Below, piece by piece: positions 817 through 16,596 of a DNA stretch of 64,000 bases (its first letter is position 1; each line of letters begins with the position of its first letter). Source of the stretch: Candidatus Latescibacterota bacterium. GTDB taxonomy: Bacteria > Latescibacterota > UBA2968 > UBA8231. The stretch covers positions 928,001 through 992,000 of the forward strand of contig CBDFJF010000002.1 in the NCBI GenBank assembly GCA_965248265.1, written 5' to 3'. Both the position numbers and the translations under genes were made by a program. The notes under the pieces are model-generated. The model did not search any database. It was not told where the DNA came from and saw only the letters and a program-made list of their open reading frames with translations.

Positions 817-1700
817 GACGAGGTTCTGCCGCGGGTACCGGTGCGGCAGTGGGTGCTGAGCCGCCGCTATCGCCTGGCCTGGGACAAAGAGCTGGTCGGG
901 CAGTGCTTGCCGTCTTCCTGCGTGTCGTCGACGGTGAGGACGGTCCGGAATTCGTGCTGGCGCCACCACTGAGCGACGACGACGTGCAACAAATCGTCGA
1001 GACCACAGCCCAACGCGTGGTCCGCCTGCTGCCACGGCGCGGCCTGCTGGAAGAGGGCAATACCGATCCGCTCATGGAGCAGGAGCCACTGCTTGCCACG
1101 ATCAGGGCGGCTTCGATCCAGGGCCAGGTGGCCCCGGCGAGCGTGCCGGCTAACCCGTGAGCAGGCGCCTGCTCGATCCCCAGGGCATCCGCACCGGCCC
1201 CCTGTGCTTTCGCCGCGCGCGGCTTCTCCCTGCATGCAGCCACCCGCGTGACGGCCGCCGACCGCACCCGCCTGGAAAGGCTGTGCCGCTACGTCAATCG
1301 CCCCCCGCTGGCAGCGGGCCGACTGCAAATCCTGGATGACGATAGAGTGGCCTTCGACCTGAAAACAGTCTGGTCGGACGGCACCTATCGAATTGAGCTC
1401 TCGCCACAAGAGTTGATAGAGAAACTGGCCGCCCTGGTACCGCCACTGCGCCTCAACCTGTTGTGCTATCACGGCGTCCTGGCGTCCAACGCCGCCGACC
1501 GGGCACGGATCGTACCAGGCCCGAAAGAAGAGGCCTGCGAAGCGGACCCCTGTGCGCATGCGGTGCCCATCCCCGCCCAACGTCGGCACCGCCTGGCCTG
1601 GGCTGACCTCCTCCGGAGAGTTTTTCGAATAGACGTTACCGTGTGCCCGCCTGCGGTGGTCACATGAGAATAGTCGCCGCCCTTCGCCCCAGCACGGCCC
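817..1700 (+). pseudogene. IS91/ISCR-like (Y2 HUH) transposase remnant, frameshifted and internally deleted
   Basis: Fragments in several frames: DEVLPRVPVRQWVLS, RLERLCRYVNRPPLA, WSDGT...ELIEKLAALVPP..NLLCYHGVLA, WADLLRRVFRIDVTVCP/CGGHMRIVAAL. No HUH segment is visible between LAVFLRVV and DGEDGPEF. Confidence 0.85.
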
Positions 1701-1819
1701 GATCCCCAGCGCTGCGTCCCCATCTCCCGCTGGCAGCTGCCGTTCCGTCCGCAGGCGCTGATCCGGGCACCCTATCCGCTTGCCCATCGTTCATCGCACC
1801 ACGATACACGCAAAAGCAC

Positions 1820-1877
1820 GGCCCTCAACACCCTCGAAAAACCTCAAACGCGCTTGACGGACGCCCGATAACGCCCT
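1820..1877 (+). repeat. 58-bp dispersed repeat, copy 1 (putative right/oriIS end of the IS91-like element, interrupted by the IS110 element)
   Basis: 57/58 identical to 16524-16581. The continuation AACCACTACACATT appears on the far side of the IS110 element (~3466-3478). Confidence 0.85.
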
Positions 1878-2079
1878 GCTATGAGAAAGCCTTCTTTGTC
1901 AAATCAGGCCGACTTGTCGGCCGCGGCGGTGCGGTTTGCGCCTGATCTGCTGTGCCGGAGCTCATCTGCCATGCTGCTGCTATGAGAAAGCCTTCTTTGT
2001 CAAATCAGGCCGACTTGTCGGCCGCGGCGGTGCGGTTTGCGCCTGATCTGCTGTGCCGGAGCTCATCTGCCATGCTGCT
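1876..2079. repeat. Tandem duplication with 101-bp period covering the IS110 right end
   Basis: 1876-1978 is identical to 1977-2079. Confidence 0.95.
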
Positions 2080-2205
2080 ATGCGCACTCTGAATGGCCGT
2101 CGTTACGGCCGGTGCAAGTTTGGGTCCATCTGGTCACAGTGCTGCAATCTTTATATCGACCTTGCATGCAGGTCAGGGCATTATGCGCAGTCACCTGGGC
2201 CAGGG
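2060..2205 (-). ncRNA. Putative bridge/seek RNA of the IS110 element
   Basis: The non-coding region downstream of the transposase contains segments matching the target (2175-2184, 2149-2155) and the donor junction (2117-2125, 2075-2082), each pair flanking a stem. Boundaries are approximate. Confidence 0.7.
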
Positions 2206-2298
2206 CATGGAGCTCTCAGTGCAGAGAGGTCACTCGTTCACAATTGTTTGTCGCGATCGCCTTCTCCGTGTTCATGTTCCTGGTAACAGGGTCCTTGT

Positions 2299-3342
2299 TC
2301 AAGCGGCCTGTCGCGTGTCCTGTCGTAGCGGTTGATACTCGGCGCCGCTGATCCACAGAGTGTGCAGCAGCACCGCCAGCTTGCGGGCCACCGCCACGGC
2401 CGCACGCTTCTTCCCCTTCTTGCCACCCCGCTGCGCCAGCTGCAGTCCCCAATGCCGTAGATCACAATCGGGACCCAGCGGTCCCAACAGGTAGTGACCA
2501 CATTGCACCAGCAACTTGCGCAGCAGCTCATCACCCCGTTTGGAGATGCGCATCTGCGGTTGGCCATCGCCCGACTCGTGCTGGCGTGGCTTCAGGCCGA
2601 TGTAAGCACCGACCGAGCGACTGCTACGAAACCGATGCGGATCCTCCAATACCAACACGAAAGCCAACGCCGTCACCGGACCGACCCCCTTCACCTGGGT
2701 CAACCGCGCCGTGTCCGGATACCGGTCTCGGCAGTGACGCACCAGCGTCCGTTCGTACGCACGCAGGGTGCGCGTCAACGTCGCGATGGTCCGTAGCACC
2801 GGCCCCAGAGCCGGTCTTAGACTGCTGGGCACATGCATCACCGCCCGGGTATGGAAGACCTCGGCCGAGCACTTGGGAATGCGTGCCCCCATCGACTTTA
2901 CCGCACCGCGCACATGGTTGATCAGTTTCGTCCGCGTCCCCATCAGCCGATCACGTGCACGCAGAAACGCCAGGTCGACCTGGGCGTCCTCACTGCGATG
3001 CTGGACCGGGCGCAACAAGCGCGGATCGGAACGGCCCCAACGAGCCAACGATTCGGCATCGATCGCATCGTTTTTGTCTTCACCACGCCGGTGGATCGCC
3101 CGAGGATTGGCCACCAACACCGCATGGCCCAGCTCGGTCAGCAGACGACTCATCCACGGCGAGTGCGTACCGACCTCCAGCACAATGCGGGCTCGGTCCA
3201 TGCCCGTGAAACGACGCCGCAGCGCCGTCTCCGTGGTAGGCAATCGACCTTCCTCAATCACCTCTCCCGCTTCGTCCACTCCAAACACCTGAGAGTAGCG
3301 GTCGCTCACGTCCAAGCCTATCGTTACCTGTGGGAATGTCAT
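2299..3342 (-). CDS. IS110-family transposase/recombinase
   Basis: IGLDVSD, VLEVGTHS, KNDAIDAESLAR, GVGPVTALAF, AYIGLKPRQHESG, ISKRGDELLRKLL. An AGGAGG RBS precedes ATG 3342. Confidence 0.95.
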   Translation of the reverse strand: MTFPQVTIGLDVSDRYSQVFGVDEAGEVIEEGRLPTTETALRRRFTGMDRARIVLEVGTHSPWMSRLLTELGHAVLVANPRAIHRRGEDKNDAIDAESLARWGRSDPRLLRPVQHRSEDAQVDLAFLRARDRLMGTRTKLINHVRGAVKSMGARIPKCSAEVFHTRAVMHVPSSLRPALGPVLRTIATLTRTLRAYERTLVRHCRDRYPDTARLTQVKGVGPVTALAFVLVLEDPHRFRSSRSVGAYIGLKPRQHESGDGQPQMRISKRGDELLRKLLVQCGHYLLGPLGPDCDLRHWGLQLAQRGGKKGKKRAAVAVARKLAVLLHTLWISGAEYQPLRQDTRQAA

Positions 3343-3478
3343 TAGGCCAGCCTCCTTTGTTTGGGCCTCGAGCCCGGTAAACCCATGTTTGGAGACCAAA
3401 GTAGGTACTCCGTGCAAGGGGGGCTGGCTTTCTCATCCAATCTTTATAACAATCGCTCTCATAGAACCACTACACATT

Positions 3479-3514
3479 GGCGAATCGGACTCCAACGGCG
3501 AATCGGACTCCAAC
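3479..3514. repeat. 18-bp tandem duplication GGCGAATCGGACTCCAAC x2
   Basis: Read directly from the sequence. Confidence 0.9.
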
Positions 3515-3697
3515 GAGAAGTCCAGTTTTCTGGTAGGCCCTCGTTGTCGCCGACAAACGGATCAGTATTTCTTCGTCGAATGGAATCGCGAATCGATAGA
3601 CGTTCCTGCCACGTATCTTTCATTGGACGGTAACGGTGACTTCAAACATGGCTTGCATCCGACTTACTTCACTCGCGTGCGTTGACTGGAGGTAGCA

Positions 3698-4324
3698 ATG
3701 AATACCGAAACGAAGGTTGCTTTGATCGAGAAGTCGCCGGCCCTCATCGGTTTTCTAGTTCTCGTATCCTTCTTGTTCATATACTCCGGGAACATTGACA
3801 TGTACGTGGATCGCATCACTCGCTTCGAAATTGCCGGAATCTCATTGGAATTCTCTAAGAAGCAAGTCCCTGCGGCCTTTTCGGATGAAGTCGCGAACTT
3901 TAACCCGGGAAAAGCTCTGCGCAGTCGCATCGGGTACCTGTCAGCGCCCCTAAAAAGATCCACGATGCTTGTCCTTCACGACGAACCGTCAGTGGCCAAT
4001 TGGCTGGCTAACGTGTTCCGAGGAATGGGCATGACGGTGGATGTGGGCATCTGTTCCGATGGGGCAGCACCACTTCTCAACCACCACTACGATGTAATTC
4101 TCTCTGACATGAATTGGTCAAATTGCTCTATCGGTGCAAAAGACGCTGTCGATTTCCTTGACCAAGTGGATCCCTCTGGCGCGCGCGTTGTTTTCTACAT
4201 TAGCAATCTCATGGGTAACAGAAAGCATATTCCTTTTTACGCCCATGAACTGACCAATTCCTTCGAGGGAATGCTGAATGGTGTCTTGGATGTCATTAGC
4301 CGTAGCGAGAGACTCACCAACTAA
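3698..4324 (+). CDS. Membrane-anchored protein with an atypical response-regulator receiver-like domain
   Basis: GGAGG RBS; N-terminal TM helix; LVLHDEP...YDVILSDM...VVFY receiver pattern; no output domain. Confidence 0.65.
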   Translation: MNTETKVALIEKSPALIGFLVLVSFLFIYSGNIDMYVDRITRFEIAGISLEFSKKQVPAAFSDEVANFNPGKALRSRIGYLSAPLKRSTMLVLHDEPSVANWLANVFRGMGMTVDVGICSDGAAPLLNHHYDVILSDMNWSNCSIGAKDAVDFLDQVDPSGARVVFYISNLMGNRKHIPFYAHELTNSFEGMLNGVLDVISRSERLTN

Positions 4325-16464: not shown

Positions 16465-16596
16465 GCATAGTGAGGATAAACGGCATTCTCGGGAGTCAGT
16501 CAAACGGTTTTTAGGCTTTTCGAGGCCCTCAACACCCTCGAAAAACCTCAAACGCGCTTGACTGACGCCCGATAACGCCCTTTGTAACCACTACAC
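16465..16596. repeat. 132-bp imperfect inverted repeat: two back-to-back copies of the IS91-like end; the right arm contains the empty IS110 target
   Basis: 16465-16525 is an imperfect reverse complement of 16536-16596; 16524-16581 matches 1820-1877. Confidence 0.8.

Follow-up and report, generated by a model that had tools for sequence, protein, structure and literature searches.

An IS1111-group insertion sequence of a Latescibacterota bacterium with a predicted bridge RNA whose guides match its IS91-like target and its own ends

The window analysed in this work is a stretch of 64,000 nucleotides from a Candidatus Latescibacterota bacterium (assembly GCA_965248265.1, contig CBDFJF010000002.1, positions 928,001 to 992,000). 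We put a probability of about 0.9 on the reading that window positions 1876-3443, minus strand, are an insertion sequence (IS) of the IS110 family, IS1111 group, and that its 3' non-coding region encodes a bridge RNA (or seekRNA) of about 130 nt with two guide-bearing parts. What carries this reading is the anatomy of the element, its sequence-based family membership, the covariation of its guide segments with flanks and element ends across relatives, and the compensatory changes in the helices of the RNA. Since RNA-guided choice of target and donor in IS110 and IS1111 elements was reported in 2024 (PMC11208160, PMC11187229), the element is a further case of a known class and brings no new principle; its target, of a kind absent from the titles of a limited literature search, and the family-wide covariation of its donor segments are increments rather than a new kind.

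Guide segments and their RNA scaffold

The guides were compared across 81 loci of relatives, namely one contig of a metagenome-assembled genome and 80 metagenome contigs with 50-59% protein identity, which with the window make 82 sources. In the first alignment, of 60 of 63 loci (three with non-coding regions over 450 nt were left out), the regions downstream of the gene showed a conserved scaffold with variable segments. Fifty-two of these 60 loci entered a flank test, the other eight having flanks that were missing or under 6 or 8 nt. One score compared the loop after ACUGCG with the reverse complement of the core plus 8 right-flank bases, the other compared the 5 bases preceding the core position upstream of GCAGC with the final 5 left-flank bases, and for each locus its own flanks were set against those of loci in other target classes (26 classes). 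Target segment 1 matched its own flank at a mean of 7.58 of 10 positions versus 4.68 for unrelated flanks, and target segment 2 at 4.38 of 5 versus 1.29. Own flanks outscored all other-class flanks at 42 of the 52 loci, and in 20 of the 26 target classes the median count of equally good other flanks was zero; among the ten exceptions are loci in which the anchor already contains the start of the guide, and a group of loci whose targets resemble one another closely. The window scores 9/10 and 5/5, which none of 51 unrelated flanks equals.

Within the window, target segment 1 reads AUAAUGCCCU (2184-2175), and its single difference from the flank is a U opposite G, the sole non-Watson-Crick position at the occupied site. 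The GACCU/AGGUC stem (2174-70 with 2162-58) comes next, and target segment 2 then reads UAUAAAG (2155-2149). Target segment 2 belongs to an exact 11-mer that recurs at the left junction (2145-2155 = 3438-3448); the window contains this 11-mer twice and none of 100 shuffles contains it, the AUUG part adding little because AUUG is conserved scaffold in the relatives. The complement of the top strand lies 5' of the complement of the bottom strand, and the two overlap at the core, that is, at the insertion point.

The second part of the RNA follows the ends of the element in the same way. After GUGCG the RNA reads, in relatives and window alike, xAU and then the right extension and core, so that AGA-AG goes with AUAGAAG (10/10), GGC-AG with AUGGCAG, GGA-GG with AUGGAGG and, in the window, AGC-AG with AUAGCAG. 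This left-donor segment (5 nt, extension plus core) is exact in 59 of 60 loci, including all 13 that have a minority extension. Before UGCAC the RNA is the complement of the left extension, CCAA for TTGG in the window, CUCA for TGAG and CCCA for TGGG; the central 4 nt of this right-donor segment follow the left extension in 39 of 58 loci (two of the 60 were dropped, their left extension not being 5-6 nt), as compared with 19.9 on average and at most 30 in 5000 shuffles. Because the guides change with their own flanks and ends across relatives, we do not believe that the matches are due to chance. The mismatches at the second and seventh base of the right-donor segment are common to the window and three relatives (L060, L088 and L095), and they look like a conserved non-pairing feature.

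A structure for this RNA was obtained with RNAalifold on a MAFFT alignment, which gave the outer helix and the GCAC/GUGC helix; the bases of the two inner hairpins were added for a covariance model, R1, of 141 positions and 22 pairs. R1 has 76 matches in the 82 sources, 16 of them outside its training set, and all 76 lie downstream of the transposase gene and on the gene strand; the match at 2070-2199 is the sole one in the window and in the genome. Among 73 distinct sequences, standard pairs fill 94.5% of pair cells versus 84.3% in shuffles (0 of 500 as high) and fall to 30-42% when the partner is slid by 1-3 columns. Compensatory changes are found in 15 of the 22 pairs and in all four helices: helix 1 (97.7% of cells paired) shows them in 6 of its 9 pairs, helix 2 in 2 of its 3 and helix 4 in all of its 5, and paired cells make up 95.0% in helix 3 and 92.4% in helix 4. 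These counts come from an alignment fitted to R1, which biases them toward structure; the MAFFT alignment independently gave the same two main helices. The guide columns fall outside the helices that compensatory changes support.

An original prediction, made by a model from the letters of the window, had located the four guide segments and their stems, and every position and match count in it (9/10, UAUAAAG, 7/9 and exact) holds on the sequence. Among the outcomes that it had named as speaking against guides are their burial in paired stems and their constancy among homologues; the segments lie outside the stems as just described, and in homologues they change with their own flanks (42/52 loci) and with the ends (59/60 and 39/58). 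The test that it asked for, of co-variation between guides and insertion sites among homologues, favoured own flanks in 20 of the 26 target classes. The coordinates of the features are collected in Table 1.

Table 1. Features of the element and its flanks (window coordinates)
Feature	Position	Strand	Basis
Bridge/seek RNA region	2070..2199	minus	Covariance model R1: 96.8 bits, E 5.8e-24; the sequence is part of the R1 training set
Target-binding loop: outer helix 2195-2187 with 2145-2138, two target segments, inner hairpin 2174-2158	2137..2196	minus	Support for helix 1 and helix 2
Target segment 1, pairs with element-sense strand of core and right flank	2175..2184	minus	9/10 to own flank
Target segment 2, same sense as left flank and core, pairs with opposite strand	2149..2155	minus	5/5 flank bases plus core
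Donor segment complementary to core and left-end extension (right donor half)	2117..2125	minus	ACCCAAACU, 7/9
Hairpin between donor segments: UGCAC/GUGCG (2116-2112 with 2087-2083), inner GGCCG/CGGCC (2110-2106 with 2099-2095)	2083..2116	minus	Helices 3 and 4
Donor segment identical to right-end extension and core (left donor half)	2075..2082	minus	CAUAGCAG, exact
Transposase gene, 347 aa plus stop, ATG at 3342	2299..3342	minus	PF01548, PF02371, PDB match
Whole IS1111-group element including cores	1876..3443	minus	AG core at both junctions, paralogous uninterrupted site, end layout common to relatives
Left-end core dinucleotide, AG on element strand	3442..3443	minus	Sequence reading and relatives
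Left-end extension ATTGG (3441-3437) and subterminal inverted repeat ATGAGAAAGCC (3436-3426)	3426..3441	minus	Repeat search
Inner right-end copy: TTGACA 2003-1998, subterminal inverted repeat 1992-1982, extension and AG 1981-1977	1977..2077	minus	Repeat search
Outer right-end copy, abutting target: TTGACA 1902-1897, subterminal inverted repeat 1891-1881, core 1877-1876	1876..1976	minus	Repeat search
Right flank, IS91-like end region, genome repeat	1780..1875	minus	12 further places in the genome match
Left flank, final bases of IS91-like end and 17 bases absent from paralogues	3444..3472	minus	Paralogue comparison

Transposase, element ends and target site

The assignment to IS110/IS1111 made in the original prediction is borne out by protein and ends alike. 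The transposase frame is open and of full length, and the protein has both Pfam domains and the S/T-G motif of an IS110-family transposase: PF01548 (N-terminal DEDD, RuvC-like; E 1.8e-17, residues 33-175 of the longer open reading frame (ORF)) and PF02371 (C-terminal, with the S/T-G motif; E 6.4e-21). In an alignment of 35 proteins, the window protein and 34 relatives, the columns of D11, E56, D92 and D95 (window numbering) are invariant and those of S257 and G258 nearly so. Among PDB entries the protein matches the transposases of IS621 (8wt6, E 5.6e-8) and ISCro4 (E 5.8e-7), and its ESG aligns with the ESG of IS621 chain 8wt6_A.

The element measures 1568 bp with a duplicated right end and 1467 bp without the duplicate. 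Its core reads AG in the sense of the element and CT on the plus strand (1876-77 and 3442-43). IS621 reportedly has CT as its core; here CT is on the other strand. On the plus strand the flanks read GATAACGCC (1867-75) and TTATAAC (3444-50), and the element ends read ...CTCATCCAAT (3433-41) and GCTATGAG (1878-85). A perfect 11-bp subterminal inverted repeat (sTIR) pairs 3426-3436 with 1881-1891, and again with 1982-1992, and stands 5 nt from the core at the left junction and 3 nt from it at the right. Its counterpart in relatives is mostly ATGAGAAGGCC, and both sTIR motifs are present in 63 of the 82 sources, the remainder being mostly contigs that end early. The relatives share this layout of core, extension of 5-6 nt and sTIR on the left, and sTIR, extension of 3 nt and core on the right; where the contig reaches far enough, the left extension is mostly ATGGG or ATGAG, the right one is GGA or AGA, and the core is AG, except for GG in one locus.

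AG stands at both junctions and once in the paralogous uninterrupted site, as for site- and orientation-specific insertion without duplication beyond the common core (judged from a single insertion, with which the relatives agree). Four uninterrupted copies read left half, one AG and right half with GGC(G/A)TTAT, and for this reason we place the ends where the original prediction had placed them; its cores, flanks and element ends at 1876-77 and 3442-43 are correct to the base. One of these four paralogues of the target lies in the window itself at 16572-16587 on the minus strand. Non-coding DNA amounts to 100 nt between the left core and the ATG and to 322 nt between the stop codon (2299) and the inner right end (1977). 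Subterminal repeats and a long downstream non-coding region are described as marks of IS1111 (PMC11187229, PMC11208160), and the window element has subterminal repeats of the 7-17 bp type with short extensions, a long downstream and a short upstream non-coding region. Bridge RNAs were predicted in 93.0% of the IS1111 elements of ISfinder, in the right end, as PMC11208160 reports. Judged by sequence, all the defining features of the IS1111 group and of a bridge RNA that are testable at this level are present.

A TTGAC is conserved about 12 nt before the right sTIR across relatives, and the window has TTGACA at 1998-2003 and 1897-1902 on the minus strand. Joining the ends in silico brings TTGACA to 16-18 nt upstream of a hexamer lying across the junction; the commonest arrangement is TTGACA, 17 nt, GAAGAT (18 loci), and the window gives TTGACA, 18 nt, CAGATT (9/12). 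This fits the -35 box of a promoter that is completed only when the ends are joined. A simple scan of the integrated element for a sigma-70-like promoter found 0, with 0.3 expected, and in the IS1111 group the sole promoter is reported to be the one formed in the circle (PMC11187229).

The target that the guides specify is the transposase-distal end of IS91-like elements in the host genome. The ORF that adjoins the right flank (1248-1667, plus strand) matches Y2_Tnp (PF04986, E 1.5e-15, profile positions 100-179 of 183), one of 16 such matches in the genome, of which 4 span the whole domain. The repeat of the flank lies beyond the 3' end of the transposase gene both in the window and at the one other copy examined (L010, Y2_Tnp match C2:2800731-2801381); in IS91, the side beyond the 3' end of the transposase gene is described as the oriIS side (PMC13181058). 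Three other IS91-like ends match target segment 1 exactly, and each is one base off on the left side. In a scan of all AG sites in the genome, six free sites score at least 12/13, with IS91-like ends in the first four places, and the score of the occupied site would equal the best. The paralogue at 16572-16587, 14.7 kb away, is a near-perfect free target with one U-G per side, and it lies on a solo 58-nt fragment of an IS91-like end. An IS1111-group element with a specific target at the end of another transposon is said to have a precedent, the host transposon family there not being IS91-like. A limited, title-level literature search found no title on an IS1111 element aimed at IS91-like ends, of which the window element is an example, these being ends of rolling-circle transposons.

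Some details of the flanks are recorded here. The Y2_Tnp region at window 1200-1945 (plus strand) is truncated (profile 84-179) and seemingly frameshifted near 1643-1667. A 24-nt stretch with the 17 extra bases of the left flank (3449-3472) recurs at G000:C2:2197528-2197551 with a different continuation, and partly resembles the element's own ends (CTATGAGA..., ...ATTG). The idea that the 17 bases are the scar of an earlier insertion was set aside as unproven, given this recurrence elsewhere in the genome. A loose end at 1877 in contigs of the DNA runs was considered as an empty site and proved to be the paralogous end at window 16581. At 3479-3514 the left flank has two tandem copies of an 18-nt unit, GGCGAATCGGACTCCAAC.

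Proposed mechanism, known systems and rival explanations

Based on these observations, and by analogy with characterised members of the family, we propose the following model. The first part of the RNA would form an internal loop closed by a 9-bp helix, in which about 10 nt on the 5' side would pair with the element-sense strand of the core and right flank, and 7 nt on the 3' side with the opposite strand across left flank and core. Around a conserved hairpin, the second part would carry the complement of the core and left extension and a copy of the right extension and core, so that the donor segments together would specify the joined ends of the excised circle. The DEDD transposase, with the RNA bound to it, would align the circle junction with the target and exchange strands at the AG core, and the predicted outcome is insertion in one orientation with AG at both junctions. 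Gene and RNA would probably be transcribed from a promoter present only on the joined ends, with the TTGACA of the right end and a -10-like hexamer across the junction. We infer transcription of the RNA, its binding by the protein, formation of the circle, present activity and the programmability put forward in the original prediction from such analogies.

The closest parallels to this model are ISEc11, ISPa11, ISKpn4 and ISPst6 (Siddiquee et al. 2024, PMC11187229). As reported there, these too have a DEDD transposase of about 340 aa, subterminal repeats, a downstream non-coding region, a top-strand match 5' of the bottom-strand match with overlap at the insertion point, a promoter found only on the circle, and a repeated, possibly structured target. 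No close sequence relation to them was found, the best plasmid-borne relatives of the window element (5 records in the plasmid collection) being 33-36% identical. The seekRNA elements of that study differ in target, which in the window element is an IS91-like end, and the window element is known from its sequence only. Moreover, PMC11187229 leaves open the role of the long RNA, whereas in the window element the donor-matching half is explicit and covaries with the ends; the donor-side covariation bears on the purpose of the long IS1111 RNA. IS621, whose transposase is of the same protein family (Durrant et al. 2024, PMC11208160; structures 8wt6-8wt9), likewise has two guide parts, each of which reads both DNA strands around a common core dinucleotide. 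In contrast, the RNA of IS621 is described as lying in the left end, upstream of the gene, with subterminal repeats of 2-3 bp, while the window element has its RNA in the right end and repeats of 11 bp, and the order of the strand matches in IS621 is reported to be reversed relative to the IS1111 type (PMC11187229).

Several observations weigh against our reading of the element and its RNA. Single-sequence folds are no more stable than shuffles (z -1.47 and -0.75), and in the minimum-energy fold of 2070-2200 it is GUGCG that takes up the 3' strand of helix 1, which displaces helices 1 and 3. For the minus-strand fold proposed as a check in the original prediction, the helices are backed by relatives, but single-sequence stability and the alternative minimum-energy pairing are not in its favour; because single-sequence folding is no more stable than shuffles, the structure rests on the comparison of relatives. 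Duplex energies do not establish a helix that would close the donor part, own flanking segments giving -5.73 versus -5.03 kcal/mol for others, with a median rank of 0.35. A search of 1500-3800 against Rfam at E up to 10 returned four chance-level matches and none on the RNA region, hence no curated model served as a test. The covariation counts use related loci as units, kinship being handled by target classes and not by a tree. The right-donor segment is weaker than the left-donor segment, with 7/9 and two mismatches in the window and an exact match in 12 of 26 loci of minority classes. A perfect tandem repeat doubles the final 101 nt of the element (1876-1976 and 1977-2077). Finally, the 7.3-Mb genome holds a single full copy of the element, despite a free near-perfect target 14.7 kb off and three more elsewhere.

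The last two points bear on whether the architecture is right and the copy is a resting or dead relic, immobile in this host, which we regard as possible and rather unlikely. Consistent with a relic, the genome has one full copy and, besides it, two degenerate pieces of related elements, four good targets stand free, a DNA search of 75 other genomes of the family returned no copy and a protein search of 167 other genomes of the phylum no match at E<=1e-40, the right end is duplicated, and the integrated form lacks a sigma-70-like promoter by the simple scan above. However, the reading frame is open and of full length with its catalytic columns kept, the four guide segments and the two ends are undamaged and agree with one another, and the promoterless integrated state is reported as normal for the group (PMC11187229). 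In addition, the 100% identity of the two right-end copies marks the duplication as recent. The description of the element as intact in the original prediction is therefore right for the frame, the four guides and the consistency of both ends, and has to be qualified for the duplicated right end. Among metagenomes its protein family is a large one, with 7959 of the 8000 scored candidates at E<=1e-40, the best non-self protein being 93% identical and the closest proteins listed 93-56%.

If the element is read as we propose, it could still be that only the target loop guides, that the protein reads the ends through the subterminal repeats, and that the donor-matching segments are scaffold that resembles the ends. 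For ISEc11, a short seekRNA of 70-100 nt with the target matches is reported to be sufficient for transposition, with the role of the long RNA left open in the same text (PMC11187229), and the right-donor segment is imperfect in the window and in many relatives, its two mismatched positions being conserved. Given that the left-donor segment follows the right extension in 13 of 13 minority loci and 59 of 60 overall, that the right-donor segment follows the left extension 39 times against a shuffle maximum of 30, and that donor-complementary loops have been reported in IS1111 members by manual inspection (PMC11208160), we consider this improbable. Still further from the evidence is the view that the matches are chance, or that the region is a DNA-level binding site for protein or a 3' structure of the mRNA with no guide role. 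Taken singly, matches of 7-10 nt are frequent (with one mismatch allowed, ATAACGCCCT is found 11 times in the window) and single-sequence folding is unremarkable, but guides covary with flanks across 26 unrelated target classes, every one of the four helices shows compensatory changes, all 76 matches share their position and strand relative to the gene, and the 11-mer shared with the junction has a chance expectation of 0. As flank covariation, compensatory changes and donor covariation already contradict this view, we give it next to no credence.

With a bridge RNA as the preferred reading, one genome displays the transposase, both ends, four guides, an occupied target and several free ones. 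The 76 related RNAs and their 26 natural target classes could serve as a resource for rules on guide length, wobble tolerance and the conserved right-donor mismatches.

The duplicated right end and further observations

The two right-end copies are identical over 103 nt at a period of 101 (1876-1978 versus 1977-2079), with the structure AG-X-AG-X-AG; therefore, the AG core is the microhomology at the junction. As a result of this tandem duplication, CAUAGCAG occurs three times. We do not believe that the duplication is an assembly slip, because in four DNA runs from one sample, possibly the source of the assembly itself, the depth of a 103-nt unitig over 1977-2079 is 1.8-2.5 times that of the IS body. 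The contigs of these runs, a form of data in which rare variants are lost, show no joint of the ends. The duplication is bounded by the terminal AG core of the element and by an AG within the coding DNA of the left-donor guide.

These boundaries raise the question of origin. The element's own recombinase may have made the 101-nt copy by exchange of the terminal AG core with a cryptic AG that lies three bases into the left-donor guide DNA, an origin that we think unlikely. In its favour, the terminus of the element is exactly one of the boundaries, and the core dinucleotide itself makes up the microhomology. However, none of the four guide-specified half-sites is matched by the flanks of the cryptic AG (1/5, 0/6, 1/8 and 0/7), and without a match to the guides we set aside the duplication as a guide-directed event. 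Slippage between two 8-nt CATAGCAG repeats followed by gain of CAG would also explain it. If the recombinase were responsible, DNA that encodes guides, which necessarily copies a donor half-site, would be a hotspot of self-recombination giving spare right ends and end-bounded modules.

Whatever its origin, the duplicated right end could give alternative excision products, as in ISPpu9 of Pseudomonas putida (PMC12288879), an IS110-family element described as having extra end-bounded modules downstream of its gene and several alternative circles. The two differ in that the module of ISPpu9 is reported to be a small RNA gene dispensable for transposition, whereas that of the window element is a perfect 101-nt copy of the right end.

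Two fragments of related sequence were seen elsewhere in the genome. One is a 42-nt solo left-end fragment (L013, G000:C2:2441077-2441119), 93% identical and with a different flank; the other is a degenerate 140-nt left end with the gene start of a related element (L002, G000:C2:2224672-2224809), at 82%.

Among the metagenome relatives, thirteen (L021-L029, L037-L039, L042, L065, L066) belong to one target class, ...TTCTC(C/G)GA, AG, TTCGC..., which suggests that the target of this class is a widespread repeat. Another group of relatives (L075, L087-L097) targets ...TTAATC / GAGTTAG-like repeats.

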